From an uncultured virus (IMG/VR IMGVR_UViG_2061766007_000545) (lineage: Duplodnaviria > Heunggongvirae > Uroviricota > Caudoviricetes), in IMG/VR virus record IMGVR_UViG_2061766007_000545: a DNA stretch of 64,000 nucleotides; one strand, written 5' to 3'. A program made the translations under genes and the position numbers. The notes beneath the pieces are model-generated. The model saw nothing but the letters and a program-made list of their open reading frames with translations. It was not told where the DNA came from and ran no database searches. Positions 1 to 63,942 of the stretch are shown here, one piece after another. Position 1 is the first letter of the stretch. Each line of letters opens with the position of its first letter.

Positions 1-1075
1 AAACCTTTACAGAACCAACACTAAGTGCAGTACCACCAATTGAATTAAAATAGAGGTCTTCAATAGAAGACTTGAGACGACAGCAATTAGATAGGCTATT
101 TACAGAACTATCAGTAAAGAAGTTAAATAAATTCCATTTACGAGATGCCTCACATGCCCATTTCGCAAATTCTTCATCAACAAACTTTCCATCCACATAA
201 AGCAGAGAGGCAGTCAAAACCGGAAAAGTAAATACATTTTCTTCTCTAACTTTATTTACAATATCAATAAATCTTTTTTGGAATTCAATAATTTCTTCTT
301 CTTCATCAATCATAAAGGTCCCGTCAGGGAATACTGAACCACCAAAGATAGACTCAAAATATGGGTGGTCAAACACAGAAACATTTGTGAACGCGCATTG
401 ATCAGTTCTAATCCAAGGCTGGTTTAGACGATAAATTAATGATTGAATCTGCTGATCACGATAGATTTCCGGAGACTCTGTATAGTAGTTCTCTGCTATA
501 TCTTTCTTCCAATACCAATAAAGGTAAGGAATTAGATTTGGTAATCCCACAGCGCCCGACTGACGACGGCTAAGCCATGCGATTGCTTCCATTAGAATTT
601 GAATAAAGGAATCTAAGTGGCGCGCAGGTTTTGCATTATAATTCTCAATAAAGAACAATCCTCTTTCTACAATATCTTTGATATCATAAGCATAACAATA
701 AGGATAAAATGTTGCGGTATCAAAATCATGAAGATAAAGTGAATAAGACCATAAATCTTCGATAATCTTATTAGCATCTTTAAAACCATATTTCTTCTGT
801 AGCTCATGGTAAATCTTATTATATGCAAGGAGCTTCCTATGCGGTTTGCTCATTTCACTCATTAGAGTTACAATATCTTTCTGTGAGATATTTGAATTTG
901 CATCAATTGATGCATTAGCTACATTTTCTTTATCAATAAAATTATCAATGAAGTCAGTAAAACTGAGCTGTCCATCTGATAGTCCTTGAAGTTCTGCAAA
1001 CTCTTCGCCGTATTTCTCTTGGAGTTTATTCAGTTGGGTAGTGAAATTTTTACTAAGACGAACATTTATATTCAT
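1..1075 (-). CDS. nrdD: Anaerobic (class III) ribonucleoside-triphosphate reductase, 3' end outside window
   Basis: Not in ORF track (runs off the edge). Manual translation from ATG 1075: MNINVRLSKNF...LYLHDFDTATFYPYCYAYD...AKPARHLDSFIQ...SRRQSGAVGLPN...NCCRL; adjacent to glutaredoxin. Confidence 0.9.
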   Translation of the reverse strand, partial: MNINVRLSKNFTTQLNKLQEKYGEEFAELQGLSDGQLSFTDFIDNFIDKENVANASIDANSNISQKDIVTLMSEMSKPHRKLLAYNKIYHELQKKYGFKDANKIIEDLWSYSLYLHDFDTATFYPYCYAYDIKDIVERGLFFIENYNAKPARHLDSFIQILMEAIAWLSRRQSGAVGLPNLIPYLYWYWKKDIAENYYTESPEIYRDQQIQSLIYRLNQPWIRTDQCAFTNVSVFDHPYFESIFGGSVFPDGTFMIDEEEEIIEFQKRFIDIVNKVREENVFTFPVLTASLLYVDGKFVDEEFAKWACEASRKWNLFNFFTDSSVNSLSNCCRLKSSIEDLYFNSIGGTALSVGSVKV

Positions 1076-1305
1076 ACTTCATAAACCCCCTTCTTCTCTC
1101 GCTTTGGCTCGGCGTTTACCCAAGCTACTGCTTCATTAAACTGCATCGGAGGTAGTCCGTCTACTACTAAAATTGGTACAGTATGAAAACCCATTCTCTG
1201 CACAGCTTCAATATCATTAACTTCTTTGTACTTAATATTTTTCATATCCATTTTGCGCGCGATAACACAGCATTTGGGACACCCCGTTGAATATAAAGTA
1301 ATCAC
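1072..1305 (-). CDS. Glutaredoxin/NrdH-like redoxin
   Basis: MITLYSTGCPKC CxxC motif and TVPIL cis-Pro motif, 77 aa; second copy at 1337-1441 is an assembly duplicate. Confidence 0.85.
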   Translation of the reverse strand: MITLYSTGCPKCCVIARKMDMKNIKYKEVNDIEAVQRMGFHTVPILVVDGLPPMQFNEAVAWVNAEPKREKKGVYEV

Positions 1306-1461
1306 TATTAGTTGCCTCCCTCACGCNNNNNNNNNNTACAGCTTCAATATCATTAACTTCTTTGTACTTAATATTTTTCATGTCCATTTTGCGCGCGATA
1401 ACACAACATTTAGGACACCCCGTTGAATATAAAGTAATCACTATTAGTTGCCTCCCTCACG
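1196..1461. other. Assembly artefact: near-identical duplication either side of an N-gap
   Basis: ~1202-1326 repeated at ~1338-1461 around 10 Ns with a few SNPs. Confidence 0.85.
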
Positions 1462-1641
1462 CTTAAGACAGTACTTACACTTACCATCAACAAATTCGTG
1501 GCTGCACTGTTTCTGATATTGACGAATTTCATCCTTTAATTTCATAACCTCTTTGTTTAATACGAAAATTTCAGGAGTAATTAGCTCTCTAATTTTATTC
1601 ATTCTCGCATCAACCTGTTGAAAAATTTCAAGATTTGTCAT
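1444..1641 (-). CDS. Small hypothetical protein with C-terminal Zn-ribbon-like motif
   Basis: CSHEF...CKYC motif, AGGAGG RBS upstream, in operon. Confidence 0.7.
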   Translation of the reverse strand: MTNLEIFQQVDARMNKIRELITPEIFVLNKEVMKLKDEIRQYQKQCSHEFVDGKCKYCLKREGGN

Positions 1642-1652
1642 ATTATTTCCTC

Positions 1653-2995: not shown

Positions 2996-5900
2996 TATTC
3001 TTCCTCTCTTACTCGCGTTTCAATTAATCCATCATCTGATACATTAGAGATAATTTCAATTCGATGGAATGGAGTTGTTTTATATTTCTTTGCAATAAAA
3101 GCATCTCCTTCTCTAATACCAGTTATGACAAGTTTATTTCCACGTGAGAAACAAGATTTTTCTTTTACGTGCTTCTTCCCATCTGCGCCACGTTCACTAA
3201 GCTGGCGATCATATTGTTGGAAGACTCCGTAGACCTTAACTGTTACTACTCCACTAGTTGTAAGTAAAGTAACAAGTTTTTTTGCTTTATCTCTATCAAG
3301 AACCGTACCAATAATACGATGAAGTTTAAAGATAGGAACTAACTTACCCTTAATCGGAATTGTGCGCTCCACATCTGGTATCTCTGAAAGTCTACTAAAA
3401 TCAGAGAAATCATATCTTTCTATATCAACCTTACTTAACTCATGCTCATGAATATAACAGGAGATACTATCCATTTCCCATTTACTTACAGAGCCAAGAC
3501 AATACTTATTCCACATATCGCTTGTGAGGCGCGCATTCACTGCGTCAAGAAGTTCTTTATTATGCGCTTGGACATAAGGTCTTATCTTATCCATATGCGT
3601 TTGATACATCGTATCCCAATATGTTTGAGGTACTTTAAACATATTATCTTCCGGAACAAGTTTATCTATGTCAAAGTGCGCGCAATAAAAATCATATGCG
3701 TTCTCATCTATATTATAATATGTGCCATTCTTCTGCTTTTTTATATATTTATTAAAGTTAAATACACGACATTGTAAGTCATACTCTTCGGGAATCAACT
3801 TAAAGTCAATAAGCATTTTCATATTTTGAAGTGTAATACGCTTCTTTGTATCGCTTATCGAGTCAATATATTCGTGCATTACTTTAACTCTATCACCAAA
3901 ACCATCAAAAGCACCAGACTTTATCAAATTAACCATTTGAGGCTTATTTACTTTTACTTTTTCTAAGAAGTTATCTAGTGAAGTATAAGGACGATTAGCC
4001 ATAATTGTCTTAACGAGTTCTCCACCAATACGAGTTATACCAGACAATCCATAACGAATCGTATTATTTTGAATATCAGGAGAGAAAGTAAGCGTTGACT
4101 CATTAATATCTGGTGCCGAAACCTTTACACCAGTAGATACGATGCGTCCGATAGCAGAACTAATCTTACCATAGTTTGTTGCTTTAACTTTCTTTTTCTT
4201 TTTCCCATCTTTTGTCTTTACAACTTCAGCTGGAAAACCATCACAATCTTCTTCCTCATATCCTTCTTCATCTTCATCTTCTTCATCGTCTTCACCAAAT
4301 TCTTCCATTTCATTATAATAAGTTTCTTCTACTTTATCTTCTTCAATCGCTTCTTCGTCTTCTTCGTTTTCGTCACTGCCACCCGCATCACTTATAAGAC
4401 ACGCACAATTCCAAAAAAGAATCGGATATTTATATGCAAGATTCATTTCTTGAAGTGCAATCAAAGAATATGCTAAGGTATGCGCACGACAGAAGCTATA
4501 ACCTCTCTGTACTTTAAGAAGTACATCCCATACATAATGAACAAGGCGCATATCACAGCCTTTTTCTTTTGCGGTCTTATAGTAGGCTTCCTCACATTCT
4601 TCAAAAAGTTTACCTTGCTTTTTTGCAATAGCTTTACGACACTTATCTGCAAAGCTCAAATCGTTTCCGCCAAGTCTTTCATCTTGGAGCAGAGACATAA
4701 GTCCCTCTTGTGCTTCACATACACCATTCGTTATAGCATTATTATGACTTAACCAATCAATTTGCTCTTCTGATAAGCCATACTGACGCATTTCTGTATA
4801 CCACTCATTAATATTAGCTCGATAACGCGCCCACATATCAAGTGGTTGTTCTGCGCCTGGCTCAGATGCCATAAGACGAATAACTGAGTTTAATACAGCT
4901 AACTCCGCAACTGACTGCGGCTTTGCTAATGCGATTCCCGTTATACCAGACTGCTTTTCCATCTGAAAGAGAGAGTTAATTTCATGGTTAAGTACCATAT
5001 CCCACATCTTCGGATCTTCTCTTTCAATATTATAAATACCTACGATTGAGTTATAAGTTTCTCGTAATGTAGGTTTGCGCTCTGCATATCCATAATCACA
5101 AAGCAAATCAATACAGATATGAATCTTATCCATCGCTTCTACAGAAAGTAAGTCAATCTTAATAAGAGAAGCTGCTTCTGCATCGTGCAATTCAAAAGCC
5201 GTACATAATGTACCATCAGGTGCGCGCATTAAACCAGTCGACTCAGTGAAAGGTTCATCTACAAAGATAACACCACCCGCATGGAGACCGGAACCATTTA
5301 TTAATCCTTCAATCTTATGTGCAACTTGCCATAACTCAGGATAGTTCTCAGTCATTTCAAAAACAAATTGCTTAATCGGCGCCCAACCATGTTCCTCATC
5401 ACCATTCATACATTGATCGAGACTACGAAGCTGTCCACGATCAGCAGGAATAAGAGATGCCACATATTGTGCTATATCTATATCAATTCCAAGTCCACGA
5501 GCCGCAGTTAAAACCGCAGATTTGGACTTTTCAGTTCTAAATGTTGCTACATTCGCTACTCTATCTTCTCCATACACATTACGCAAATGAGCAAGAACCT
5601 GTGCGCGCTTTCCACCTTCAATATCGGTATCAATATCAAGAACTGACTCTCGCTTCGGGTTAAGAAAACGCCAAGGGAAACAAGGAGTTATTTCTCTTAA
5701 GTTGTTCATCTGAATAATGTCAAGACAATACAACAAAAGGAAACCACCACCAGATCCACGAGAAGGTCCAACAATCGTTCCTGCATTCCAACACTCATCT
5801 ATTGTCTTTTGAAGATTTAAGAAGTAAGCAGACCATTGCGCCTTATTTACAAGAGAAGATTCCCAAGTACGCTGAAGATTATCCTCTAATTCTGCATAAG

Positions 5901-6975
5901 CTTTTTCATTCTGCAAATCAAGATGAGACTTAATTCCTTCAATTACCGCATCTACCAAATTTCTATCTGATACGAACTCAGACTCACTAAAGTTACGAAG
6001 AGTAGGCATCTTAGCAAACCATTCTTCATATTCTTCTTTATAATTCTTAATATCACGCCAAATTAAATTCGGAATCTTTAACGGCTTTGTTAAAGAGAAG
6101 TCTACACACATATCACTAATCTTTTTAATATTTGCATAGGCTTCGCGCATTACTTCTACATCGTCAAAACTATATTTCATATATGATTCAAGTTCTTCTG
6201 TTCCCATCATATATGTAGTTGCATAGAAGTCATCTACCTCTCTATCACCATTTTGAGAGTTAAGGAAAGCCTTATGGATACGTCTATCTTCTTTCTTCAA
6301 ATAGTGAGAGTCAGTAGTTATAATATATCCAAGTTTATGATACCGAGCAAATTCAAGAAGCTTTCTATTTACTTTTATCTGCTCAATATTCTTACTTGGC
6401 TGCATTTCCAAATAGAAGTTTTCTCTTCCAAAAAGTTCTGCTAATTGCTCAATCCATCCATGAAGTTTCTCTTCATCTGTCCCACGCAATATCTGTGTAG
6501 CTAGCGCACCACCAAGACATGCGGTTGATCCAATCACATGACCGGGATTTGCGCCAATTATATCAAATAAATCTTGATAGTATGTTGGAACACGACGCAT
6601 ACCGCGCGCCATATAACTTCTTTTCCATGCGCGAGTTGATATCTCCATTATCTGCTTTGCGCCTTCAAGGTCTTTTGCAATTAAAATAAAGTGATAGTAT
6701 CTATCATAATCTTTATTATAATTTGTCGCATTAAGACCATTACGCACAAGATAAATCTCATTACCCCTAAGAACCTTAAGGTTTGGATGCTTCTTTGCTG
6801 CTTGCTCTATCTTTAACCAGCTACTTACTGTTTCATGGTCTGTGAATGCAAACACAGAATGCCCTAATTCTTCTGCATAAGACATTGCATCATTAATATG
6901 AATAATACAATCTCGTAGACGGATGTTACTGTATTCCGTATGATTATGCAAAGAACCCGGATAAAACTCACCCAT
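2995..6975 (-). CDS. dnaE: DNA polymerase III alpha subunit (family C)
   Basis: PHP domain HNHTEYS/TDH, RGSGGG, DIDTD catalytic motif, GLHAGGV, KIDLL, YSFCRAH, C-terminal OB fold. Confidence 0.97.
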   Translation of the reverse strand: MGEFYPGSLHNHTEYSNIRLRDCIIHINDAMSYAEELGHSVFAFTDHETVSSWLKIEQAAKKHPNLKVLRGNEIYLVRNGLNATNYNKDYDRYYHFILIAKDLEGAKQIMEISTRAWKRSYMARGMRRVPTYYQDLFDIIGANPGHVIGSTACLGGALATQILRGTDEEKLHGWIEQLAELFGRENFYLEMQPSKNIEQIKVNRKLLEFARYHKLGYIITTDSHYLKKEDRRIHKAFLNSQNGDREVDDFYATTYMMGTEELESYMKYSFDDVEVMREAYANIKKISDMCVDFSLTKPLKIPNLIWRDIKNYKEEYEEWFAKMPTLRNFSESEFVSDRNLVDAVIEGIKSHLDLQNEKAYAELEDNLQRTWESSLVNKAQWSAYFLNLQKTIDECWNAGTIVGPSRGSGGGFLLLYCLDIIQMNNLREITPCFPWRFLNPKRESVLDIDTDIEGGKRAQVLAHLRNVYGEDRVANVATFRTEKSKSAVLTAARGLGIDIDIAQYVASLIPADRGQLRSLDQCMNGDEEHGWAPIKQFVFEMTENYPELWQVAHKIEGLINGSGLHAGGVIFVDEPFTESTGLMRAPDGTLCTAFELHDAEAASLIKIDLLSVEAMDKIHICIDLLCDYGYAERKPTLRETYNSIVGIYNIEREDPKMWDMVLNHEINSLFQMEKQSGITGIALAKPQSVAELAVLNSVIRLMASEPGAEQPLDMWARYRANINEWYTEMRQYGLSEEQIDWLSHNNAITNGVCEAQEGLMSLLQDERLGGNDLSFADKCRKAIAKKQGKLFEECEEAYYKTAKEKGCDMRLVHYVWDVLLKVQRGYSFCRAHTLAYSLIALQEMNLAYKYPILFWNCACLISDAGGSDENEEDEEAIEEDKVEETYYNEMEEFGEDDEEDEDEEGYEEEDCDGFPAEVVKTKDGKKKKKVKATNYGKISSAIGRIVSTGVKVSAPDINESTLTFSPDIQNNTIRYGLSGITRIGGELVKTIMANRPYTSLDNFLEKVKVNKPQMVNLIKSGAFDGFGDRVKVMHEYIDSISDTKKRITLQNMKMLIDFKLIPEEYDLQCRVFNFNKYIKKQKNGTYYNIDENAYDFYCAHFDIDKLVPEDNMFKVPQTYWDTMYQTHMDKIRPYVQAHNKELLDAVNARLTSDMWNKYCLGSVSKWEMDSISCYIHEHELSKVDIERYDFSDFSRLSEIPDVERTIPIKGKLVPIFKLHRIIGTVLDRDKAKKLVTLLTTSGVVTVKVYGVFQQYDRQLSERGADGKKHVKEKSCFSRGNKLVITGIREGDAFIAKKYKTTPFHRIEIISNVSDDGLIETRVREEE

Positions 6976-7037: not shown

Positions 7038-8798
7038 TTAAAATTCGTATTTTGGAGTTTTCTTTATATTATAGGCATCAACAAAAATTTGCGGCGTTAT
7101 TACTCCACACCATTCATTTATATTAGCGCGTCCTACGACTTCAAGAATTACATCTTGTCCATCAAAGCCACGCAATTCTTCAATAAAGTCTTTTGCCCTA
7201 AACCACATATAAGCAATACCATTCAATTCTACTTTTACAGTATCTTGGTTCTTACCCATAATTCTAAATTCTTTTGTATTTACTTTAATATTAGTAACAT
7301 AGATAAGAGGTTCGGAGTTGCCTTGACCATAGGTGTAAGTATAGTCAGAAAGTTCTTTAATGAGTCTTGCTAAATCTTTATCAGAAGCAAGGCGTTGAAA
7401 ATTTGCATCATAAATCTTCTCACCTAAGTTAATATTCTTTAACTTCTCATTTGCATATTCATGAAATGCACGCAAGTTTTTATCTGCAATCGAACAACCA
7501 AAAGCATTAGCATGACCTTGAGCATATTCAAAAAATCCGCTTTCATTTAGAAATGCTTTAAAGTCTTTTAATTCACTCTTATCAAGTCCTCGTGCACTTC
7601 CTCTAATATAACCCTCATCATTAAGGCGCGCAACAATAGTCGGACGTTTATAGCGGTCAGAAAGTTGCATAGCGATTAAACCATTTAATTCCGGAGGAAA
7701 GTTATCCGTATCGTCAAGACGAACAAAGAGAATTGTATTTTCCAAAAGGTCGTATTTTGCAATACGCATTTCCATTTTCTCTACAGCTTCATCCTTCATT
7801 TTATTTTGGTGCGTTTTATTGTTCGTACACTCGCGCGCCGCCTCGTTTCCGACCGAATCCATTTGACCCTTACAACCGCGCTTAAGACTCGGTACCTGTT
7901 TATTTACATCTACAAATGCGGTGTAAAGACGCTCTTTTTCTGCCTGAGTACCCATTCGGATTGTTGCATTAATAAGGGGAACAATATAGAAAGCAACAGA
8001 AATTGCGTTAATTTTCCCAATCATACTATCAAGTGTAGTAGTTGAACCACAGATTGAATAAGATTGCTTTTCAAGAAGGAGTTTAAAGAAAGGATTTTTA
8101 ATTCTTCTTAATCCTGTATAGGAGATATAAGCATTTTCCGGTTCAAGAAGAGAACCCATATCACCGATAATTCCCCAAGCCGCAAGGTCAATAAAATCCT
8201 CAGAATAATTAAGGTTAAGCATTTTATCAAGATAGCGACAGAACTGCCACACAACTCCCGCACCAGTTAATTGCTTATTAGAGTAGTTAGGAGAGAGCTG
8301 ATTATTTATGATGATTGCATTTGTACTAAATGGCGGGTCTGCTTCATGGTGGTCAAGCACAAGACAGGGTGCTACATCTTTGAGTGCCTCATGATACTCA
8401 TAGTCATTAGATGAACTATCGGGAAGAATAATGAGGTCAATCTTCTCATTCATATTTAGAATTTCATCACAATGGTCTTCTAGTCCATGTTCTTTATGAT
8501 CATGGAGAAGAGTTGTGATTTTTATATTTGGATTAAGTTTTAAGGTATATTGGTGAATAATCGCGGCTGATGTAAAGCCGTCATTATCACTATCGACAAC
8601 AAGGACAATATGGGTTCCATTATTTACTTTATCGACGTACAGCTGCGCGCCCTCCTCTATGCTCGACAAAAGTTTAGGGTCAAGCAAAGATAAAGCTGAA
8701 GGGTGCTTAATAGTGTCAAGGTCTATTACACCCCTCGCGCGCAAAAGTGAGTCAATATAATTTTCTTGGAAATTTTCATTCACTAACTGACATTTCAT
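7038..8798 (-). CDS. recJ: Single-stranded DNA exonuclease RecJ (DHH/DHHA1)
   Basis: DSDNDG, LDHH, GAGV, GSAR, GHANAFG motifs. Confidence 0.93.
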   Translation of the reverse strand: MKCQLVNENFQENYIDSLLRARGVIDLDTIKHPSALSLLDPKLLSSIEEGAQLYVDKVNNGTHIVLVVDSDNDGFTSAAIIHQYTLKLNPNIKITTLLHDHKEHGLEDHCDEILNMNEKIDLIILPDSSSNDYEYHEALKDVAPCLVLDHHEADPPFSTNAIIINNQLSPNYSNKQLTGAGVVWQFCRYLDKMLNLNYSEDFIDLAAWGIIGDMGSLLEPENAYISYTGLRRIKNPFFKLLLEKQSYSICGSTTTLDSMIGKINAISVAFYIVPLINATIRMGTQAEKERLYTAFVDVNKQVPSLKRGCKGQMDSVGNEAARECTNNKTHQNKMKDEAVEKMEMRIAKYDLLENTILFVRLDDTDNFPPELNGLIAMQLSDRYKRPTIVARLNDEGYIRGSARGLDKSELKDFKAFLNESGFFEYAQGHANAFGCSIADKNLRAFHEYANEKLKNINLGEKIYDANFQRLASDKDLARLIKELSDYTYTYGQGNSEPLIYVTNIKVNTKEFRIMGKNQDTVKVELNGIAYMWFRAKDFIEELRGFDGQDVILEVVGRANINEWCGVITPQIFVDAYNIKKTPKYEF

Positions 8799-56542: not shown

Positions 56543-56551
56543 TTATACTAT

Positions 56552-56624: not shown

Positions 56625-56628
56625 CTTT

Positions 56629-56702
56629 GTTCCGTTAGGCTAATGGAAAAAGACTAAGCGACTTCTAATCGTTTGATATAGGTTCGAATCCTATACGGAA
56701 CA
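56629..56702 (+). tRNA. tRNA-Arg(TCT)
   Basis: AGCGA-CT-TCT-AA-TCGTT. Confidence 0.88.
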
Positions 56703-56719
56703 TCGAAGGGAGAAAAGAA

Positions 56720-57289
56720 ATGTATAAAGGTTTATATGATAAATTTAAAGATTGGTTTCATAATGATAGAGGTAATGTATGGTTTTATTCCGATCCTCAC
56801 TTTAGTGATGAAGAAATGATTTATTTGCGCGCTAACTATATTGGCGATTTAGAGCAAGTAAAACGAATTAACTCTAAAGTAGGTAAATATGATACGATTA
56901 TCTTTCTTGGTGATATTGGAAACCCTGAATACATTTCTAATATTCGTGGATATAAAGTACTTATAAAAGGAAACCACGATAGCGGAAATGCAAATTATGA
57001 AAAGTACTTTGATGAAATTTACGAAGGCGCGCTTTGTGTGTCAGAAAAAATTATACTCAGTCACGAACCAATTTACTTTCCTTTTGCCCTAAATATTCAT
57101 GGACATGACCATTCTAATTGGGAATTCCAAGACGAAATGCATTGGAATGTTTGTGCAGAGTATATTAACTATACTCCTATTAGTTTAAATGATATAATTA
57201 AGTCTGGTAGGTTAAAGAAAATTGATAGTATCCATAGAGTTACGATAGATAAAGCCACGGAAAGAAAGGGAGAGAAAAATGGTGTATAA
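56720..57289 (+). CDS. Calcineurin-like metallophosphoesterase
   Basis: SDPHF, LGDI, KGNHD, LSHEP, HGHDH. Confidence 0.9.
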   Translation: MYKGLYDKFKDWFHNDRGNVWFYSDPHFSDEEMIYLRANYIGDLEQVKRINSKVGKYDTIIFLGDIGNPEYISNIRGYKVLIKGNHDSGNANYEKYFDEIYEGALCVSEKIILSHEPIYFPFALNIHGHDHSNWEFQDEMHWNVCAEYINYTPISLNDIIKSGRLKKIDSIHRVTIDKATERKGEKNGV

Positions 57290-57467
57290 ATTAATATTAG
57301 ATGAAAAAGATATTAGTAAAATTCTATCACAGGTTTTTGTAACAGATGGCGGTAAGCTTGAAGCTTTTTGGAAGGTATATGACGAAGCTGGCATAATGGG
57401 TGATGAGACAAGACTTGAGATTACCTTAACGTCTAGTTCTCCTATTACTCCAATAGAAGATTTTTGA
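57279..57467 (+). CDS. Small hypothetical protein
   Basis: 62 aa, overlaps upstream stop, GGAG RBS. Confidence 0.55.
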   Translation: MVYKLILDEKDISKILSQVFVTDGGKLEAFWKVYDEAGIMGDETRLEITLTSSSPITPIEDF

Positions 57468-57492
57468 TTTTTCTTAAAATTTTTGATATAAT
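57464..57492 (+). promoter_or_regulatory. Sigma-A-type promoter (ncRNA/tRNA array 2)
   Basis: TTGATT-17-TATAAT. Confidence 0.8.
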
Positions 57493-57651
57493 ATATATAG
57501 AAAAGTTGAGAGAGAAATAAAAAAGTTTATAAAAGTTATAGCCTCTGTGACAATTTAGGGTGCTTACGCTATAACTTCTTAAGCGCAAACCTCAAGTTAT
57601 GCCTAATCTGCTGCTATCGCGCTATATAAACTGAGCAGGAAAAGGCAATTC

Positions 57652-57724
57652 GGTTCTATAGTTTAGTTGGTTAAAATACGGCGCTGTCAACGCCGAGTCA
57701 TGGGTTCAATCCCCATTGGAACCG
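57652..57724 (+). tRNA. tRNA-Asp(GTC)
   Basis: CGGCG-CT-GTC-AA-CGCCG. Confidence 0.92.
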
Positions 57725-57951
57725 CGCCCATAGTGGATAGACGGGTTCAGAGATGCCTTAAGGTGTAACTCTATAAAAATACCTTTATTGCAAGGATAAC
57801 TAGTGCCACCTAGGAAACCTTAGCCGGAGTCAAAACAGGGTTTTTCTCCTTATTAATTCAAGGGCGTACGACGCTGAGAGTGAATTAAGTTAAAGGAGGT
57901 TTTCTGATGGCAGCGACTTACGACAACAAAAACAGGCAGAGAAAACTTTTG

Positions 57952-58025
57952 GGGGGTTTAGCTCAGTTGGTTAGAGCGCTTGACTGTTAATCAAGATGTC
58001 CTAGGTTCGAGTCCTAGAATCCCCG
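57952..58025 (+). tRNA. tRNA-Asn(GTT)
   Basis: CTTGA-CT-GTT-AA-TCAAG. Confidence 0.93.
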
Positions 58026-58086
58026 TTGAACAAAAACCTCCTAAAGGTTTTTACTAGTAATGTGCTTGCACTACCCTAGGTTTTTT

Positions 58087-58281
58087 GTGAAGGTTGGCGG
58101 AGTATGTAGGTGTACGCAGTATAAATTCATAGTAATTGGATTCTAAAAAGAATTGGGCGCCACGTGGGTGGCTCGGAGAAAGTTAGGACTTCTCTCAATC
58201 AACTCTACGGGACTATGATACCTCTCTATAATGAATACCCGAACCAAGAGGGAGTCGATTAACTCCAACTCTTGCCTTCAC
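58087..58281 (+). ncRNA. Candidate ~195-nt structured ncRNA (unclassified)
   Basis: Ends pair (GTGAAGGT/GCCTTCAC), internal TCATAGT/ACTATGA and GAGAAAGT/ACTTCTC; no ORF. Confidence 0.45.
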
Positions 58282-58284
58282 TAT

Positions 58285-58356
58285 GCACCCATCGTCGAAT
58301 AGGCAAGACTACTGACTTGTAATCAGTGTATGGCGGTTCGAGTCCGTCTGGGTGCT
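58285..58356 (+). tRNA. tRNA-Thr(TGT)
   Basis: ACTGA-CT-TGT-AA-TCAGT. Confidence 0.9.
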
Positions 58357-58359
58357 CTC

Positions 58360-59165
58360 CCACCACTCGATACTAGTAGGAAAACCGAAGCTTTATTTCG
58401 AGTTAATGTGACTCTAGTGGAATCTTAGGAAAGTCGAGGAACTCGAGGGATATACCCTCCAAGAAGGGTTGAGCCTTCAGCACAGGGGTTTAAGGTCGAA
58501 GTGACAATAGTCATATGGTAAGAACCAGGCATGTAAATGTGCGTTAGTGCGAAAAACCTTAAAGAACCTAACACGCCTCTCAACGATGCGGACCACGTTA
58601 GGTCTGGGAATACTGAAAAACGAGAGCAGTGAGCACACACAGGAATCTCACGCCGTACTAGTCTCCGGTACACGACTATGAGGTGGTAATAGTCCCTCGT
58701 CACGATGTGTAGGTATTCCCGTAATTTGTCGCCTTCGTCTAATTGGCTAGGACAGCGCCCTTTCACGGCGCAAACGTGGGTTCAAACCCCATAGGCGGTA
58801 TATTGGGTAGAAAGATAAACTACCCCTCCCTTCCGAGGGAAAAGGTCCCTGACATCTTTAAGAGTCGACACTTGAAAGGTGCATACCAAACTTCTTATAA
58901 TGGGCAAGCGATAGTCCCATATCGTTAACGCTTCTAACACGGAAGTAAAAATAGGTAGTTGCTCGTAAGGCAAGCTTCGACAGAAAGGCTGACATGAGGA
59001 CTCCGCGGATGTCGTGCCGCGGTATAGAAATGGTTGGACAGTTCTACTAGGGATGACAACTAAAGTAGCAGTATGGAGCATTCTATGTAATGCGGTTGAA
59101 ATGCTGAAGTAGTTTGCGGTGGTTTTGGGGCGACATTTATCCACTTGTCAAAAAGAAAGAGCGTT
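58360..59165 (+). ncRNA. Large ornate ncRNA candidate (one ~800-nt GOLLD-like RNA with embedded tRNA-Glu, or two ~360-nt RNAs)
   Basis: GC-richer, no credible CDS, more than 15 hairpins plus several loop-loop complementarities; family assignment unverified. Confidence 0.6.
58728..58800 (+). tRNA. tRNA-Glu(TTC)
   Basis: GCGCC-CT-TTC-AC-GGCGC. Confidence 0.92.
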
Positions 59166-59170
59166 CATCA

Positions 59171-59244
59171 CGAGGGATACGTCAATTGGCTAGACGGCGT
59201 GCGTTGGATGCACGAGGTTGCGGGTTCGAATCCTGCTCCTTCGA
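59171..59244 (+). tRNA. tRNA-Pro(TGG)
   Basis: CGTGC-GT-TGG-AT-GCACG. Confidence 0.9.
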
Positions 59245-59253
59245 CTCGAAAAT

Positions 59254-59282
59254 TTGAAAATTTTCGGAATTTTTGGTATACT
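59254..59282 (+). promoter_or_regulatory. Sigma-A-type promoter (tRNA array 3)
   Basis: TTGAAA-17-TATACT. Confidence 0.75.
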
Positions 59283-59306
59283 ATATTTACAAAAGTTAAG
59301 AAATAT

Positions 59307-59377
59307 CGCGCTGTGATGTAATGGAAGCATACTAGCCTCATACACTAGAAATACGGGTTCAAGTCCCGTTGGCGCAA
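59307..59377 (+). tRNA. tRNA-Met(CAT), initiator-like
   Basis: CTAGC-CT-CAT-AC-ACTAG, C1:A72 mismatch. Confidence 0.83.
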
Positions 59378-59424
59378 GTCCATTATCTATAGGTGGCGCT
59401 GAATACATAAGAAAGGAAAAAGAA

Positions 59425-59781
59425 ATGGGATATTATACTGATTATTCACTTAAGGTTTATAATGAGAAAGGTCAGTTAATCGATTCAGAAGATAAGGAAT
59501 TCGAAGAAGTACGTAGAGTCTTTTCTGAAAAGGTTGAATGGATAGATTCTGATGACCTTAATGCTCTTAATACTGAACACGGAGTTAATTGGAAGTGGTA
59601 TTCTGCGCGAAGAGATATTGAAGAAATCGCAAAAGAACTTCCTTCTTATTACTTTATTCTCGAAGGACAGGGAGAAGAGAATGGAGATTGGTGGACTCTT
59701 GCTCTTCATGGAACACAAATTTATGAAGACGAAGTAGTTGCACCCGCAAATCATTTTGATGATTTTTGGGTTGCTTATTAA
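59425..59781 (+). CDS. Acidic hypothetical protein
   Basis: MGYYTDYSL...KWY...L.G.GEE..D.W; AAAGGA RBS. Confidence 0.7.
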   Translation: MGYYTDYSLKVYNEKGQLIDSEDKEFEEVRRVFSEKVEWIDSDDLNALNTEHGVNWKWYSARRDIEEIAKELPSYYFILEGQGEENGDWWTLALHGTQIYEDEVVAPANHFDDFWVAY

Positions 59782-59858
59782 GTCCTCGTACGCCAATAGG
59801 AACCAGACGGCTTGACTACGAATCAACGCAGATGTGGGTTCGAATCCCTCCGAGGACA
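59782..59858 (+). tRNA. tRNA-Arg(ACG)
   Basis: TTGA-CT-ACG-AA-TCAA. Confidence 0.85.
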
Positions 59859-59861
59859 TAT

Positions 59862-59947
59862 GCCGCAGTACCTTAGTGGGGAGGAGGGACGGTCTTGAAA
59901 ACCGTTGACCTTCACGGGTCTGTTAGGTTCGAATCCTACCTGCGGCG
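59862..59947 (+). tRNA. tRNA-Ser(TGA)
   Basis: ACGGT-CT-TGA-AA-ACCGT, long variable arm. Confidence 0.9.
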
Positions 59948-59951
59948 CTCT

Positions 59952-60040
59952 GTTTGGGTGGCAGAGTCTGGTCGAATGCGGTGGATTGCTAATCCATTGA
60001 ACATTAAATTGTTCCGAAGGTTCGAATCCTTTCCCAAACG
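59952..60040 (+). tRNA. tRNA-Ser(GCT)
   Basis: GTGGA-TT-GCT-AA-TCCAT, long variable arm. Confidence 0.9.
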
Positions 60041-60112
60041 TTTAAACTAATTTAAAGGAGAACTATGATGAAGCGAAAACATATTCACAAATTAAAATCG
60101 AAGAAAATTTAC

Positions 60113-60184
60113 GCGTCCGTGGCAGACAAGTAATGCACACGACTTTTAATCGTGGATATGTGGGGGCAGTACCCATCGGGCGCA
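60113..60184 (+). tRNA. tRNA-Lys(TTT), non-canonical T-loop
   Basis: CACGA-CT-TTT-AA-TCGTG; T-arm GTGGG-GGCAGTA-CCCAT. Confidence 0.8.
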
Positions 60185-60188
60185 CTAT

Positions 60189-60262
60189 ACCGATGTAGTT
60201 TAACTGGCAAAATAGCTGACTCTTAATCAGTAAGACTGTGGGTTCAACTCCCACCATCGGTA
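60189..60262 (+). tRNA. tRNA-Lys(CTT)
   Basis: GCTGA-CT-CTT-AA-TCAGT. Confidence 0.9.
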
Positions 60263-60264
60263 CT

Positions 60265-60336
60265 GTGGGAGTGGCAGATAGGTAATGCGCTAGATTGTGG
60301 CTCTAGTTTATGCGGGTTCAAATCCCGTCTCTCACC
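60265..60336 (+). tRNA. tRNA-His(GTG)
   Basis: CTAGA-TT-GTG-GC-TCTAG, C73. Confidence 0.9.
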
Positions 60337-60339
60337 TAT

Positions 60340-60414
60340 ACGAGCATAACTCAGTAGGTAGAGTGTCCGTCTGATACGCGGGAAGTCGGTTGGGTTCAAA
60401 TCCCCCTGCTCGTA
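60340..60414 (+). tRNA. tRNA-Ile(GAT)
   Basis: TCCGT-CT-GAT-AC-GCGGG. Confidence 0.85.
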
Positions 60415-60426
60415 CTTACCGAAAAT

Positions 60427-60455
60427 TTGATTTTTTCTTAAATTTTTGGTATAAT
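60427..60455 (+). promoter_or_regulatory. Sigma-A-type promoter (ROOL-like RNA)
   Basis: TTGATT-17-TATAAT. Confidence 0.8.
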
Positions 60456-60480
60456 ATATGTATAGAAAATAAGAAAAGAA

Positions 60481-61085
60481 CTTTGAAAACTTTATAAAAA
60501 GCGTGTTGCAACCTTGTGAAGAGCGTCTAACCAACGCTGCAAGGGCGCCTCGGAACAGCTGAGGAGTCGTCAGAAGGATACTTCAAAACGGCTCAACTTT
60601 CACAGAAATCGAAAGACGAAGTGAGAAGGAGTAAAACTCCAACAGAGAAGAGGTGGCGCAAGGGCAATATGATTATAAGACACGATTCCGGTTTTCCCAA
60701 CAATAGACGCCTCGGTGAGGAATAACCCTATAGACCACATCCGCAAGATGTGAGCCAATGTAGGGAATGCAAAAGCAATGGGAATGCCTCGACACTACGT
60801 CAGAAATGGCGTAGAACCGGTTTGCGGTACGAGTAGCCTAAGAGGCGTAATATTTCTAAAATAGTTGACATTAATTATTGGGCAAATGTTATTAATCTGA
60901 ATGGTTGGTGAAAGTTAGGGGTACATGAATCCCCTTCGAGACAGTGGTTCCGAAAGGAACTGGGGTAAGAAGTTATACGGCGACGGCTGTATGGCTCAGA
61001 CTTATCTCCTCGGTGGTCGAATAATAAAGGTTATTGAGGGAGTATAGCGAAGGCTAGCAATATACTTTTTATAAAGTTTTTAAAG
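60481..61085 (+). ncRNA. Large structured ncRNA, probable ROOL RNA
   Basis: ~605 nt with no CDS, 29-nt terminal complementary arms, many short-loop hairpins, own sigma-A promoter, tRNA neighbourhood; family assigned from recalled size/context/motifs, not from a search. Confidence 0.72.
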
Positions 61086-61147
61086 AAAAGAAAAGGAGTT
61101 AAGTTATGATGAGACGATGGTGTATGGAGCAGCACATTAAGTAATAT

Positions 61148-61218
61148 GCGGCTCTAGTGTAATGGTAACATGGCGGTCTCCAAAACCGCAGATTAGGGTT
61201 CAACTCCCTAGAGTCGTG
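61148..61218 (+). tRNA. tRNA-Trp(CCA)
   Basis: GCGGT-CT-CCA-AA-ACCGC. Confidence 0.92.
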
Positions 61219-61222
61219 CTTC

Positions 61223-61296
61223 GGCATTGTACTCAAGTGGATTAAGAGGCGGGGCTGCAACCTCCGTAGTCGTTGGTTCGAATCCAACCAATGCCT
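61223..61296 (+). tRNA. tRNA-Cys(GCA)
   Basis: CGGGG-CT-GCA-AC-CTCCG, U73. Confidence 0.92.
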
Positions 61297-61310
61297 CTTT
61301 AATAATATAT

Positions 61311-61383
61311 GCCCCGATAGTCGAACGGCATAGACGCTTGTCTTAGGAACAAGTATTTGGGGGTTCAAATCCCTCTCGGGGTA
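61311..61383 (+). tRNA. tRNA-Leu(TAG), short variable loop
   Basis: CTTGT-CT-TAG-GA-ACAAG. Confidence 0.85.
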
Positions 61384-61550
61384 CGCCGCGGTAACAAAGG
61401 TATATACCTAGGGGTAAAGAGAATAGAGATAGTATGGGACGCTCGAGGGACTAACCTCGTTCTGCGCTTTGCCAGAGAATTTAAAGTGCGCAACCCATGC
61501 CCCGGCGTTTTTGTAGTGGCGCTCGAAGTAATACACTACGATAGAAGGTT

Positions 61551-61617
61551 AGTCTTATGGTCTAATTGGACAAGGACGCGCAAAAGCGAGGTAGGGGTTC
61601 GATTCCCTTTAAGACAA
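61551..61617 (+). ncRNA. tRNA-like RNA lacking a normal anticodon arm
   Basis: Acceptor GTCTTA/TAAGAC, D arm, T arm AGGGG-TTCGATT-CCCTT; anticodon arm reduced to CGC-AAAA-GCG. Confidence 0.75.
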
Positions 61618-61643
61618 TTTATTTTATTTTGGAGGAAAAGAAA

Positions 61644-61979
61644 ATGCCGTTTTCATTTACTACTACAAATTTACTAGATGATATCTTTCTTTCTGCTGAT
61701 TGTAGACTTGTTGTTCGATCTCAATCTCGTGTTGAACGATTTAAAAATCTTGTAAAGGTTGTGTTTAAGAATAAGGATAAAAGAATTTTTGGAGTAAAGC
61801 TTTCTAATGGCGAAGTAATTACTGTTAAGTGTGCCGAGAATGATACTTGGGATGAAGAGAAGGCATTGCTTGCATGCTTCGCAAAGTGGGAAGCCGGTAA
61901 TAATGGTACATTCAATAAGCTCTTTAGCTTACTTGATAATGTAGTAGATACTTCGAAAGGACAAAAGAAAAATGACTAA
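61644..61979 (+). CDS. Hypothetical protein
   Basis: GGAGG RBS; V.C...D.WDEEKA motif. Confidence 0.65.
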   Translation: MPFSFTTTNLLDDIFLSADCRLVVRSQSRVERFKNLVKVVFKNKDKRIFGVKLSNGEVITVKCAENDTWDEEKALLACFAKWEAGNNGTFNKLFSLLDNVVDTSKGQKKND

Positions 61980-62106
61980 TAAAGATAAATATAATCTGAT
62001 GTTCGCGCGCTATGTAACTTTGAGCGAAAAGCCGAAAAACATTAAGTCAGGTGGAGTACTACGGAAGCTGCGCCGTAAGCTGCGCGCAATGAAAAAAGAC
62101 AATTAA
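61972..62106 (+). CDS. Small basic protein (44 aa)
   Basis: MTNKDKYNLMFARY...KNIKSGGVLRKLRRKLRAMKKDN; overlaps upstream stop; below ORF-track cutoff. Confidence 0.55.
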   Translation: MTNKDKYNLMFARYVTLSEKPKNIKSGGVLRKLRRKLRAMKKDN

Positions 62107-62191: not shown

Positions 62192-62401
62192 ATGTATAAA
62201 ATGACAAAAGTAAACTCAAGTGCGATTGCAGAAATTGGTTATGATAAAGATACGGGTACTTTGAAAATTACTTTTAATAGTGGTTTAGAGTATGAATATC
62301 CAAACTTTGAAGAAGCGCAATATAAAGAATTTCTTCATGCGCCTTCAATAGGAAAATATTATAATAAGAATATACGCTCAAGCTTCTCAATAAAAAGATA
62401 G
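62192..62401 (+). CDS. KTSC domain protein
   Basis: VNSSAIAEIGYD...L.I.F.SG..Y.Y...APSIGKYYN..IR. Confidence 0.9.
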   Translation: MYKMTKVNSSAIAEIGYDKDTGTLKITFNSGLEYEYPNFEEAQYKEFLHAPSIGKYYNKNIRSSFSIKR

Positions 62402-62466
62402 AACAAATAATAAAAACTCCCACTTATAAATGTAGGGAGTTTTTTTAATATGGAGGATTATAAAGA

Positions 62467-63093
62467 ATGGCGAAGAATGACTTGACCATTAGAATTCCAA
62501 ATTTGGCAAAGGAAACAATGCCACTTCCCGATCCAGAGCTACTTCAGTTTTATAGGGAATATGAAAATAGAATTATTTGGCTTATAGATGAGATTGGAGA
62601 TGAAGTCTATAGTGTGATGCAAATGATTCTACAATTTAATAGAGAAGATGAGGAGATTGCCCCTGAAGATAGAAAACCTATCCGATTAATTATCGCTTCA
62701 CCCGGCGGTACGCTTGATTGCGCGCGCTCATTGGTTTCTATTATGAGACTTTCAATAACCCCAATTTATACAATTGCTGTTGGAAGCGTAGCTAGCGCAG
62801 CTTCTATGATTTATCTCGCAAGTAATCGTAAATTTGCAATCCAAGGTGCGTCCTTCCTTTTCCATCAAGGGAGTTGCGATAATGTAAGCGGTAGCTATGC
62901 AGAAGTTACTGCTTTTGCAGATAATTATAAGAAAATTATTTCTGATATGACAGAATTTTATAAAACACATACAAAGTTTCCAAGTGAAGTTATTGAAGAA
63001 AAAATTCAAAAAGATTGGTATATTGGTCTTGATGAAGCACTTGAAAATGGAGTAGTAGATGAAATTATAGAAGATATTAGTATACTTCTGTAA
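62467..63093 (+). CDS. clpP: ClpP-like protease subunit
   Basis: IASPGG, ASAAS catalytic Ser, FHQ, EALENGVVD. Confidence 0.88.
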   Translation: MAKNDLTIRIPNLAKETMPLPDPELLQFYREYENRIIWLIDEIGDEVYSVMQMILQFNREDEEIAPEDRKPIRLIIASPGGTLDCARSLVSIMRLSITPIYTIAVGSVASAASMIYLASNRKFAIQGASFLFHQGSCDNVSGSYAEVTAFADNYKKIISDMTEFYKTHTKFPSEVIEEKIQKDWYIGLDEALENGVVDEIIEDISILL

Positions 63094-63105
63094 TGAAGGA
63101 GGAAT

Positions 63106-63942
63106 ATGAACGAACTCAATTATACGGGTTACATTGAAGCAGACTTGAATGATGAAAGTCTTGCTGAACTCATAGAAAAGGGAACGTCTAAAATACTTAG
63201 TACAACTACGGAGAATCAGTACGTAATCGCGCACGATGAACATGGAAAAGAAGTTTATTTTAAGTGTAAAAATGGGAAATATGAATTAGTTAAATATCCT
63301 TTTATAAATTCGATACTTACTGGTCAGTTGAAGCCGAGAAACCCTCAGCAGTATTGCGCGATGGATATGTTACTTGATGAAAGTATTCCGGTTAAATTGA
63401 TTACGGGTAAGTTTGGTAGTGGTAAGACATTGGCTTGTATTGACTTTGCAATACAGGCAATTGAAGCAGGAAAATTTGAGAAGATTGTATTTGTAAGGAA
63501 TAATGTACAGGTGGCTAACACAGATAGTTTGGGTGCGCTTCCCGGTGACGAGTTGGAGAAGACGCTGCCTTATGTGATGCCTTTTGCTGACCACTGCGGT
63601 GGAAAGGATGGGTTGATGCGCTTGATTCATGATGAAAAGTTGGAAGTTATTCCACTTGCTTTTCTGCGCGGGCGCAGTATACGTAATGCCATCATTTACT
63701 CTATGGAGTCGGAGAACCTTACAAAGGAGCAGATTCAGTTAATTATGGGGCGCGTAGACGAGGGTTCTATCTTGGTTATGGACGGTGATATAAAGCAGAG
63801 AGATAAAGCTGCTTTTGAGAAGTCGATGGGACTTGAGAGAATGGTGAGCGCGCTTAAGGGGAATAAATTATTTGGATATATTCATTTAGTAAAATCAGAA
63901 AGAAGTGAGGTTAGCGCGCTTGCGGATTTACTTGATGAATAA
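63106..63942 (+). CDS. phoH: PhoH-like ATPase
   Basis: GKFGSGKT, LGALPG, FLRGRS, GD..Q.D, RS..S.LA. Confidence 0.9.
   Translation: MNELNYTGYIEADLNDESLAELIEKGTSKILSTTTENQYVIAHDEHGKEVYFKCKNGKYELVKYPFINSILTGQLKPRNPQQYCAMDMLLDESIPVKLITGKFGSGKTLACIDFAIQAIEAGKFEKIVFVRNNVQVANTDSLGALPGDELEKTLPYVMPFADHCGGKDGLMRLIHDEKLEVIPLAFLRGRSIRNAIIYSMESENLTKEQIQLIMGRVDEGSILVMDGDIKQRDKAAFEKSMGLERMVSALKGNKLFGYIHLVKSERSEVSALADLLDE

Follow-up and report, generated by a model that had tools for sequence, protein, structure and literature searches.

GCGCGC is an iterated palindrome of an uncultured phage lineage, present about once per kilobase in long-resident DNA

Phages are the textbook case of palindrome avoidance. 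Here, we describe the palindromic hexamer GCGCGC in a stretch of 64,000 nucleotides from an uncultured tailed phage (IMG/VR record IMGVR_UViG_2061766007_000545; the whole stretch is hereafter called the window), where it is iterated about once per kilobase. A search of a limited literature library returned nothing relevant on GCGCGC over-representation in a phage. A described counterpart in cells is HIP1, GCGATCGC, which is accompanied by alternate highly iterated palindromes (HIPs) in cyanobacteria (Elhai 2015, PMC4390886; Xu et al. 2018, PMC5861425). HIP-type words co-occur with methyltransferases of matching specificity and reach about 1 per 1000 nt, with one-off variants tending toward the outer positions (Elhai 2015, PMC4390886), and HIP1 sites show stronger conservation from genome to genome than do control palindromes or hexamers (Xu et al. 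2018, PMC5861425). HIP1 and the phage word are alike in being short GC-rich palindromes that are many-fold over-represented, independent of reading frame and found about once per kilobase, with words varying by lineage and one-off variants tolerated at outer positions. They differ in that GCGCGC occurs in phages rather than cells and has six bases rather than eight, that the methyltransferase families tested were not found in the phage genomes, that extra conservation of its sites is marginal and that within the 64 kb its spacing is not regular. The HIP1-like signal proposed by the initial annotation stands as a description (palindrome, hyper-abundance, frame independence, sharing within a lineage and outer variants) but fails for the matching methyltransferase, which did not turn up in the phage, and for this reason we do not file GCGCGC as a HIP member.

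Other known systems share single features with the phage word. Very-short-patch repair linked to Dcm and Vsr in Escherichia coli raises CCWGG and lowers CTWGG, and very-short-patch repair acts on phage lambda DNA. Like the reading favored below, it is a methylation-linked, sequence-specific repair that raises a palindromic word, also on phage DNA in the cell; unlike it, it involves Vsr, which was found in none of five relatives, and here T-containing neighbors are not clearly depleted and the effect is far larger. The words enriched in the sublineages of this phage coincide with recognition sequences of restriction-modification systems, GCGCGC, CCGCGG and CGCG being the BssHII-type, SacII/Eco29kI-type and BstUI/FnuDII-type specificities, respectively. 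Avoidance of such sites is expected in phages, whereas here GCGCGC is enriched while GATC, GGCC, ACGT, CATG and CTAG are avoided. The Chi words of Firmicutes (AGCGG, GAAGCGG and GCGCGTG, the last listed as Chi of Lactococcus and streptococci; PMC5959072) are likewise short, GC-rich, GCG-containing, strongly over-represented in AT-rich genomes and lineage-specific, but they are asymmetric and orientation-dependent. Finally, phage T5 carries site-specific nicks in R/GCGCRGG (PMC3517423), a phage-specified DNA transaction at a GCGC-containing word. The T5 sites are only a handful, confined to one strand, extended asymmetrically and not enriched across the genome, and flank preferences of GCGCGC are weak.

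Counted with overlaps, GCGCGC occurred 67 times in the 64,000 bases, i.e., 1,047 per Mb, against 2.63 expected from composition (25-fold). A hand count in the initial annotation had given about 60 hexamers with about 2 expected, which agrees well with these values; its GC content of about 35% was slightly below the measured 37.1%, and 18 of its 19 example coordinates were exact, the remaining one, 24222, lying one base from the true start at 24223. Under Markov models, which it had recommended, the expected count rose from 3.7 (order 1) and 19.9 (order 2) to 50.4 (order 3) and 69.5 (order 4). Orders 3 and 4 absorb the excess because the sub-words GCGC (350 vs. 76), GCGCG and CGCGC are themselves enriched. 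The odds of GpC and CpG in the window were 1.14 and 0.97, respectively.

The excess was then compared with shuffles of synonymous codons within each gene, which preserve protein sequences, dipeptides and per-gene codon usage; genes were mechanical open reading frame (ORF) calls, and dinucleotides at codon junctions are not preserved by these shuffles. The crude ORFs contained 61 GCGCGC, against 8.0 ± 2.8 in synonymous shuffles (maximum 17 in 300) and 4.5 ± 2.1 under codon permutation. In a cleaned gene set of 52 kb, from which the tRNA region had been removed, 57 copies stood against 7.1 (z 21.5), the top deviation of the 64 palindromic hexamers, and GCGC (289 vs. 111.5, z 21.1) showed the top deviation of all 256 tetramers. 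The initial annotation had named codon and dipeptide usage as what might make the enrichment vanish; the excess clearly remained (57 vs. 7.1), and the hexamers were found in all three reading frames (19/23/15). They were also spread evenly along genes (14/12/14/6/11 by quintile) and, as had been claimed, occurred both in genes (57 to 61 copies) and in intergenic DNA, where about 6 of the 67 lay, matching the non-coding share of the window of approximately 9%. The flanks of the 67 sites were mutually unrelated, except for a duplicated 46-mer containing the sites at 1255 and 1391, and this diversity indicates that GCGCGC is a dispersed hexamer rather than a piece of a longer repeat. Enrichment far above compositional and codon expectations is thus confirmed.

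Next, we focused on the anatomy of the word. Among maximal alternating runs, exact GCGCGC was found 42 times against 1.7 expected and exact CGCGCG 3 times against 1.7, while isolated GCGC was frequent (142 vs. 50) and isolated CGCG scarce (29 vs. 50). The run stops at six: C followed GCGCG in 67 of 107 cases and GCGCGCG in 1 of 10, and the window holds one (GC)4 and no (CG)4. Relative to the synonymous shuffle, GCGC flanked by A/T was not raised (AGCGCT 6 vs. 6.8, TGCGCA 8 vs. 12.2), CGCG lacking the 5' G or the 3' C was depleted (TCGCGA 1 vs. 11.0, CCGCGG 0 vs. 2.9, ACGCGA 6 vs. 14.7, TCGCGG 4 vs. 10.5), words containing CGCGC were approximately 4-fold up and GCGCGC itself was 8.2-fold up (57 vs. 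7.0). One-off variants of GCGCGC stood at 1.5- to 4.3-fold over the null when the change was at an outer position and at 0.5- to 1.2-fold when it was at an inner one. GC-only hexamers without GCGC or CGCG were at expectation (85 vs. 78.2), those with GCGC far above it (154 vs. 41.1). Hexamers of the same composition were scarce (GCCGGC 1, CGGCCG 1, GGGCCC 0 and CCCGGG 0, vs. 67 for GCGCGC), and by nearest-neighbor energies their duplexes are close in stability to that of GCGCGC. Flank preferences were weak and symmetric (G at -1 and -4, T at -6) and possibly reflect codon periodicity. Because CGCG is disfavored alone, GCGC is neutral alone and the two together are favored, a multiplicative model of independent tetramers fails. 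The cooperative pattern implies that the recognized unit spans five to six bases with two-fold symmetry, and such a unit speaks for a protein, not for a mutational tendency or physical trait of the bases themselves. GCGCGC accordingly acts as one separate word of six bases that is two-fold symmetric, with a CGCG core and G...C as its outer bases.

One gene lacks the bias. The tail-fiber gene at 33620-38089 (+ strand), 4.5 kb long, contained 4 GCGC against 5.1 expected from its own composition and a single GCGCGC (33981-33986), whereas in every other gene of at least 600 bases expecting at least one GCGC, this tetramer was 1.9- to 9.9-fold above the gene's own composition; one short ORF expecting only 0.3 GCGC was also without excess. 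Since no homologue of the tail-fiber gene was found in the relatives except for a stretch of 55 residues, it is probably a recent import, and its lack of bias suggests that the enriching process acts slowly on resident DNA. Other palindromes are avoided in the synonymous-shuffle comparison, including GATC (66 vs. 162), GGCC (9 vs. 34.6), ACGT (59 vs. 113), CATG (84 vs. 116), CTAG (63 vs. 94), AGATCT (1 vs. 19.9) and TCGCGA (1 vs. 11.3). Examined in the same way for restriction-site avoidance, GCGCGC showed the opposite, over-representation. The phage is thus exposed to restriction, with GCGCGC specifically spared. Taken as a whole, these results make GCGCGC a true iterated palindrome of the phage lineage, kept at about one per kilobase in long-resident DNA regardless of gene, strand and frame.

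The distribution of the habit among related phages was followed through a scan of IMG/VR with Pol III, which gave 33 loci. Pol III identity reached at least 50% in 14 loci. Of these, 13 (L001-L008, L010, L017, L018, L021 and L031) had GCGCGC at 14- to 50-fold and GCGC at 2.8- to 5.4-fold over composition, and the remaining one, the 5.8-kb locus L009, had zero GCGCGC. Eight loci at 46-48% identity had GCGCGC at 0- to 2.2-fold and GCGC at approximately 2-fold, like any GC tetramer. In 12 loci at 32-37% identity, GCGCGC was absent, GCGC stood at 0.1- to 1.4-fold, and most of them avoided CGCG, GGCC and CCGG. Three whole relative genomes carried 42, 56 and 88 GCGCGC against 2.9-4.7 expected. The GCGCGC habit is therefore a trait of an uncultured phage clade with an SPbeta-type replication module, flanked by sister clades that lack the enrichment or avoid the word. 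Median protein identity was 37-48% inside the enriched clade and approximately 33% to the sister clade, and the nearest relative in the contig collections had 74% Pol III identity to the window.

Within the clade, the word itself varies. Genomes G002-G005 share the GCGCGC context matrix, whereas in G001 the peak words were CCGCGG (145, 21-fold) and CGCGCG (122, 18-fold), with isolated CGCG at 531 vs. 135. This contrast indicates that the family trait is S-CGCG-S (S, G or C), with the outer base depending on lineage. In G004, GC-only hexamers without GCGC or CGCG were also raised (446 vs. 290, z 7.3), those with GCGC more so (318 vs. 96). Clade members vary in what they avoid, with observed/expected ratios from 0.04 to 0.96 for GATC and from 0.16 to 1.9 for GGCC. 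As a separate observation, six of seven related genomes (G001, G002, G003, G005, G411 and G412; loci L034-L046 and L101-L134) look TAG-recoded: ORFs of at least 150 aa cover 0.39-0.49 of them under the standard code and 0.71-0.81 with TAG read as sense. The gyrA gene of G002 has one in-frame TAG, and the window and G004 use the standard code.

We further compared individual sites between relatives. At approximately 45% protein identity, the GCGCGC sites of the window were kept in 3/35, 3/34, 5/36 and 7/28 aligned cases, against 8-17% of GC-only controls, and in the unenriched clade 0 of 16 were kept. At approximately 82% nucleotide identity, 12 of 21 GCGCGC were retained, compared with 58 of 173 GC-only hexamers and 136 of 611 hexamers with five G/C; at 96-97% nucleotide identity, the figures were 28/39 for GCGCGC and 152/209 for GC-only hexamers. 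Differences at GCGCGC sites between close relatives were almost all C/T or G/A transitions, as differences generally also mostly were (among those listed, 40 of 1,363, from four runs with relatives). Hence, the density of GCGCGC is maintained while individual sites turn over, and any extra persistence of a site is at most weak. In a comparison of loci L149/L021 with L148 at 96-99% identity, G/C-rich hexamers were kept at 0.70-0.74 and A/T-rich ones at 0.82, with balanced transitions dominating; the lower conservation of G/C-rich hexamers fits with G/C positions turning over quickly in these AT-rich genomes.

A writer for the word was sought in the phage genomes. In five complete relatives, cytosine-5 methyltransferases (PF00145) and Vsr (PF03852) were found in none, and the N4/N6 methyltransferase family PF01555 gave no match above the cut-off. 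Methyltransferase families were likewise absent from the 71 ORFs of the window and from the 127 scanned ORFs of G004, where 4 ORFs at piece boundaries were not scanned. The phage methyltransferase suggested by the initial annotation thus finds no support in these searches. Among candidate readers, a YorF-like protein, ATP ligase, dNMP kinase, PhoH and a dUTPase-like protein of 319 aa were present in all five enriched genomes and not in the sister clade; none of them stands out as a sequence-specific DNA binder. The conserved protein with a C-terminal GIY-YIG domain is shared with the unenriched sister clade. Gyrase A, another suggestion of the initial annotation, is indeed encoded by all five enriched genomes and is absent from a 96%-complete genome of the GCGC-avoiding clade, but it is also found in both complete genomes of the sister clade, which are weakly enriched or without hexamer excess; it does not discriminate and was rejected as a discriminating reader. 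A lead toward modified bases was also set aside: a divergent thymidylate-synthase-like gene was found in G004 alone, and the clade-specific dNMP kinase and dUTPase-like genes could not be linked to GCGCGC.

The host was sought in genomes of the class Clostridia, with sampling centered on one genome matching in DnaE. In a Pol III search of genome contigs, all matches were cellular DnaE (22-27% identity), with no prophage and no pointer to a host. The 401 sampled Clostridia included no low-GC genome whose GCGCGC density approached the 1,047 per Mb of the window. Only G031 and G187 came near the window in density and phase bias, and they were rejected as host-like genomes, having 57% GC and an observed/expected ratio of about 1. 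With GCCGGC as a composition-matched control in 62 Clostridia from the sample, the best GCGCGC:GCCGGC counts were 1073:298 and 268:102, or 3.6 and 2.6 to one, compared with 67:1 for the window.

We tentatively favor the reading that GCGCGC is the footprint of a host-supplied methylation or repair specificity of restriction-modification type, to which we assign a probability of only about 0.35. A genome-wide, sequence-specific, protein-mediated process would hold GCGCGC at about one per kilobase in long-resident phage DNA. The host cell would supply a cytosine methyltransferase of restriction-modification type, with BssHII-type GCGCGC specificity for the phage of the window and SacII/BstUI-type specificity for CCGCGG or CGCGCG in the sublineage of G001. 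Methylated sites would be preferentially kept or regenerated, as proposed for HIP1; their retention may proceed via methyl-linked or T:G-directed repair or through methylation that shields the CGCG core, and CGCG would then persist only as S-CGCG-S while vanishing as W-CGCG-W (W, A or T). The methylation, its host origin and the biased repair are the parts of this scheme that we infer. It draws on the observed enrichment, its independence of coding, its specificity in phase and length, its clade distribution, the switch of the outer base, the lack of methyltransferase and Vsr genes in the phages and the gene without bias.

Several of these observations speak for host-supplied methylation or repair. 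The reading would explain why the unit is a palindrome of six bases, why the word differs between sublineages, each variant being a known methyltransferase specificity, why CGCG is depleted where unprotected and why no phage writer turned up. HIP-type words, too, co-occur with methyltransferases of matching specificity (PMC4390886), and in a phage under restriction pressure on other palindromes the sparing of GCGCGC is specific. The failure to find a phage-encoded writer points to a cellular one, and the preferred word changes between sublineages in the way methyltransferase specificities do. The unbiased tail-fiber gene is what a slow process on resident DNA would leave, and the better retention of GCGCGC than of GC-only controls at approximately 82% identity (12/21 vs. 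58/173) is counted on the same side.

Other results weigh against it. No matching host genome was found among the 401 sampled Clostridia. The signature expected of T:G-to-C:G repair was weak, with transition neighbors not clearly depleted (GTGCGC/GCGCAC 27 vs. 11.6, GCGTGC/GCACGC 5 vs. 9.7; tetramers GTGC 113 vs. 133, GCAC 104 vs. 128). The halo of variants at outer positions was richer in G/C transversions (GGGCGC 4.3-fold) than in transitions (ACGCGC 1.5-fold), which does not suit a simple decay of methylated sites. In E. coli, the word bias from Dcm/Vsr falls far short of 8-fold. Differing avoidance of GATC and GGCC within the clade suggests different hosts, all of which would need the same process. 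Moreover, at approximately 45% protein identity and at 96-97% nucleotide identity, sites were kept no better than GC-rich controls.

The main rival places the reader in the phage itself: a dimeric phage protein would read S-CGCG-S for marking, nicking, repair/recombination or condensing/packaging, with selection acting on the density of sites rather than on single ones. We regard this as a real possibility that nevertheless falls well short of even odds. The trait tracks phage phylogeny across deep divergence (Pol III identity of 54-72%, median protein identity of 37-48%) and spans members with differing profiles of restriction avoidance, no matching host genome emerged among the bacteria sampled, and the cooperative, phase-specific, length-limited pattern fits a protein footprint. 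The phage also encodes a full set for DNA transactions (Pol III alpha, RecJ, primase, DnaB, Sak4, UvrD-like helicase, ligase, RNase H and gyrase) together with the GIY-YIG protein, and T5 offers a precedent for site-specific nicks in a GCGC-containing word, R/GCGCRGG (PMC3517423). Against such a reader stand the clade-specific genes, which include no evident sequence-specific DNA binder, the presence of the GIY-YIG protein in the unenriched sister clade, the turnover of individual sites and the Poisson-like spacing (coefficient of variation 0.94), in which gaps of 4.6 and 5.0 kb are tolerated. In a more specific version, which we consider unlikely, the word would be a genome mark of the lineage's own that is independent of any methyltransferase: a dimeric phage protein reading S-CGCG-S with a switched outer base might, for example, tell phage from host DNA during host-DNA degradation, or the sites might be nicked for excision or recombination by the GIY-YIG protein, UvrD-like helicase, RecJ, Pol III and ligase.

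Alternatively, the pattern could be neutral and stem from a mutation bias that depends on sequence context. Under GC-to-AT pressure, G/C would survive better in stable runs, and GCGCGC would be merely the commonest spelling of such runs. In keeping with this, G/C-rich hexamers evolve faster than A/T-rich ones (0.70-0.74 vs. 0.82 kept at 96% identity), mostly by transitions, and G004 shows an excess even of GC-only hexamers that contain neither GCGC nor CGCG (446 vs. 290, z 7.3). In the window, however, such hexamers match expectation (85 vs. 78.2) and the GCGC-containing ones exceed it (154 vs. 41.1), words of the same composition are all but missing (GCCGGC 1, CGGCCG 1, GGGCCC 0 and CCCGGG 0, vs. 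67), and exact runs have a preferred phase (42 vs. 3) that is not the same in every sublineage. We hold this explanation to be quite unlikely.

By analogy with Chi, GCGCGC might also attenuate a host helicase-nuclease of AddAB/RexAB type and, being a palindrome, would protect the linear, terminally redundant genome from both ends. Low-GC Firmicutes have short Chi words that are rich in GC and contain GCG (AGCGG, GAAGCGG and GCGCGTG; PMC5959072); these vary by host lineage, like the word of the phage. The lysis and tail genes of the window look Firmicute-like, and GCGCGTG itself occurs 5 times against 0.84 expected, with two overlapping copies at 50926. Nevertheless, all known Chi words are asymmetric, whereas GCGCGC is its own reverse complement with only weak symmetric flank preferences; GCGCGTG is minor (5 forward and 2 reverse-complement copies vs. 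67 GCGCGC), and the host genomes sampled show no GCGCGC excess. The odds against a Chi-like role are accordingly long.

Alternating GC is the classic Z-forming sequence, and tracts prone to Z-DNA or buffering supercoils could be tied to the phage gyrase, gyrase A being encoded in 5/5 enriched genomes and missing from the 96%-complete member of the GCGC-avoiding clade. This idea is disfavored and has very little probability left, since gyrase is also present in 2/2 complete sister-clade genomes without hexamer excess, CGCGCG should serve equally well yet reaches only 3 vs. 1.7 exact runs, and runs beyond six bases, in which Z-DNA forms more readily, hardly occur (one (GC)4, no (CG)4). A coding artefact of codon, dipeptide or amino-acid usage, such as Ala-Arg pairs, is refuted, because the excess stays when proteins and codon usage are kept (57 vs. 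7.1), falls in all frames (19/23/15) and has equal density in non-coding DNA, although the GCG and CGC trinucleotides are each approximately 1.7-fold over composition.

Spacing of the sites over the 64 kb is Poisson-like, and a quasi-periodic distribution was not observed at this scale; a GCGCGC-free gap of 4,978 bases extends from 57027 to 62005. In the first part of the window, GCGCGC lies at 620-625, 2250-2255, 7626-7631, 7833-7838, 8645-8650, 8737-8742 and 9273-9278, at five positions in the Pol III alpha gene (3529-3534, 3678-3683, 5222-5227, 5603-5608 and 6604-6609) and at 1255-1260 and 1391-1396 in two near-identical 46-mer copies on either side of an N run. Sites follow at 10773-10778, 10999-11004, 11613-11618 and 12523-12528, in gyrA (14880-14885, 16341-16346 and 16706-16711), and at 18719-18724, 20804-20809, 21013-21018, 21302-21307, 22965-22970, 23311-23316, 23654-23659, 24223-24228, 24842-24847, 26659-26664, 26947-26952, 27554-27559, 28592-28597, 29750-29755 and 30362-30367. 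Two sites form the arms of an intergenic hairpin of 51 nt (31909-31959), with the 5' arm at 31909-31914 and the 3' arm at 31954-31959 followed by TTTC. The hairpin lies just past a gene ending at 31832 and folds at -31.2 kcal/mol (z -4.8 vs. shuffles); it is probably an intrinsic terminator and thus an ordinary use of GCGCGC. Beyond it, sites occur at 33140-33145, 39135-39140, 41754-41759, 42349-42354, 42381-42386, 43519-43524, 43897-43902, 45352-45357, 46117-46122, 47467-47472, 47835-47840 and 49754-49759, with three more in intergenic DNA (38588-38593, 62005-62010 and 62082-62087). The site at 50947-50952 adjoins GCGCGTGCGCGTG (at 50926), which consists of two overlapping GCGCGTG copies and is followed by GCGCGCG in the intergenic stretch 50915-50965 between divergent genes; the fold of this stretch is unremarkable (z -1.6). 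The remaining sites are at 51957-51962, 52499-52504, 52935-52940, 54151-54156, 54252-54257, 56827-56832, 57027-57032, 63848-63853 and 63914-63919, at the 5' end of tRNA-Leu(taa) (55188-55193) and in the only (GC)4 run of the window (62720-62727), which holds two overlapping copies (62720 and 62722).

The window is a 64-kb portion of a large tailed phage. Its SPbeta-type replication module comprises Pol III alpha, a RecJ-like exonuclease, primase, a DnaB-like helicase, a Sak4-like protein and a YorF-like protein; the last is the ORF at 13054-13944, which a protein atlas places in the SPbeta replication module and which had no sequence match among solved structures. Gyrase A, a split gyrase B, a UvrD-like helicase, ATP ligase, RNase H and dNMP kinase are also encoded, as are two glycosyltransferases, the N-terminal part of NrdD, ClpP, PhoH and 28 tRNA genes. 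The tail and lysis genes include Dit, several fiber proteins, a Dp-1-type holin and SH3_3 and Tal domains, and this set (Dp-1 holin, SH3_3, Dit and Tal) looks Firmicute-like by sequence. In protein searches, the closest named phages were SPbeta-like Bacillus phages (38% identity in Pol III, 35% or less in GyrA), and a near-identity DNA search of a phage collection with the window gave no match. Public sequencing runs containing window DNA are labeled bovine gut or gut metagenome.

The two parts of gyrase B (N-terminal 18365-19867, C-terminal 16957-17340) are separated by a GIY-YIG homing endonuclease gene at 17460-18161. A second endonuclease gene, of GIY-YIG/NUMOD type (21837-22493), lies between the UvrD-like helicase and the conserved protein with a C-terminal GIY-YIG nuclease domain (22499-23560) that adjoins this helicase; a related-strain contig (run X7) joins 21831 to 22512 via 32 other letters and looks like an insert-free allele of this region. 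A query of the protein atlas with the 22499-23560 protein yielded nothing further. The 28 tRNA genes form an array on the + strand (54879-61384) that covers most amino acids and is poor in GCGCGC, with 3 sites; the short ORFs called mechanically inside it are spurious. Three short N runs occur in the window (1327-1336, 2460-2469 and 2566-2575), and the near-identical 46-mers, which start at 1235 and 1371 and flank a run of 10 N, are possibly a scaffolding or masking artefact at a thioredoxin-like gene.

Some genes could hint at non-canonical nucleotides or DNA glycosylation, namely those at 19920-20738 and 48241-49789 of the window and at L050:12401-14691 of G004. The first encodes a GT8 glycosyltransferase that sits within the replication module and is absent from all relatives compared, and the GT2 glycosyltransferase of the window adjoins the dNMP kinase gene. 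The dUTPase-like protein of the enriched clade and the divergent thymidylate-synthase-like protein of G004 could hint in the same direction. Proteins 99% and 84% identical to the GT8 product were found in public assemblies, the latter on a contig of 93.7 kb, and these matches indicate that relatives much closer than those compared here exist.

A restriction-type hexamer standing 8-fold above a codon-preserving null across a whole clade is unexpected in phages, all the more so with switching of the word between sublineages. Besides HIP1, the clade thus provides another setting for asking what purpose iterated palindromes serve, and one that is far smaller and evolves faster. With genomes of 116-180 kb, about a hundred sites each, no methyltransferase of their own and natural variants of the word, the models of methylation-linked repair and of a selected binding site would become directly testable given virion DNA or a host. 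In addition, the GCGCGC excess could serve as a marker for host prediction or for lineage among uncultured rumen phages.

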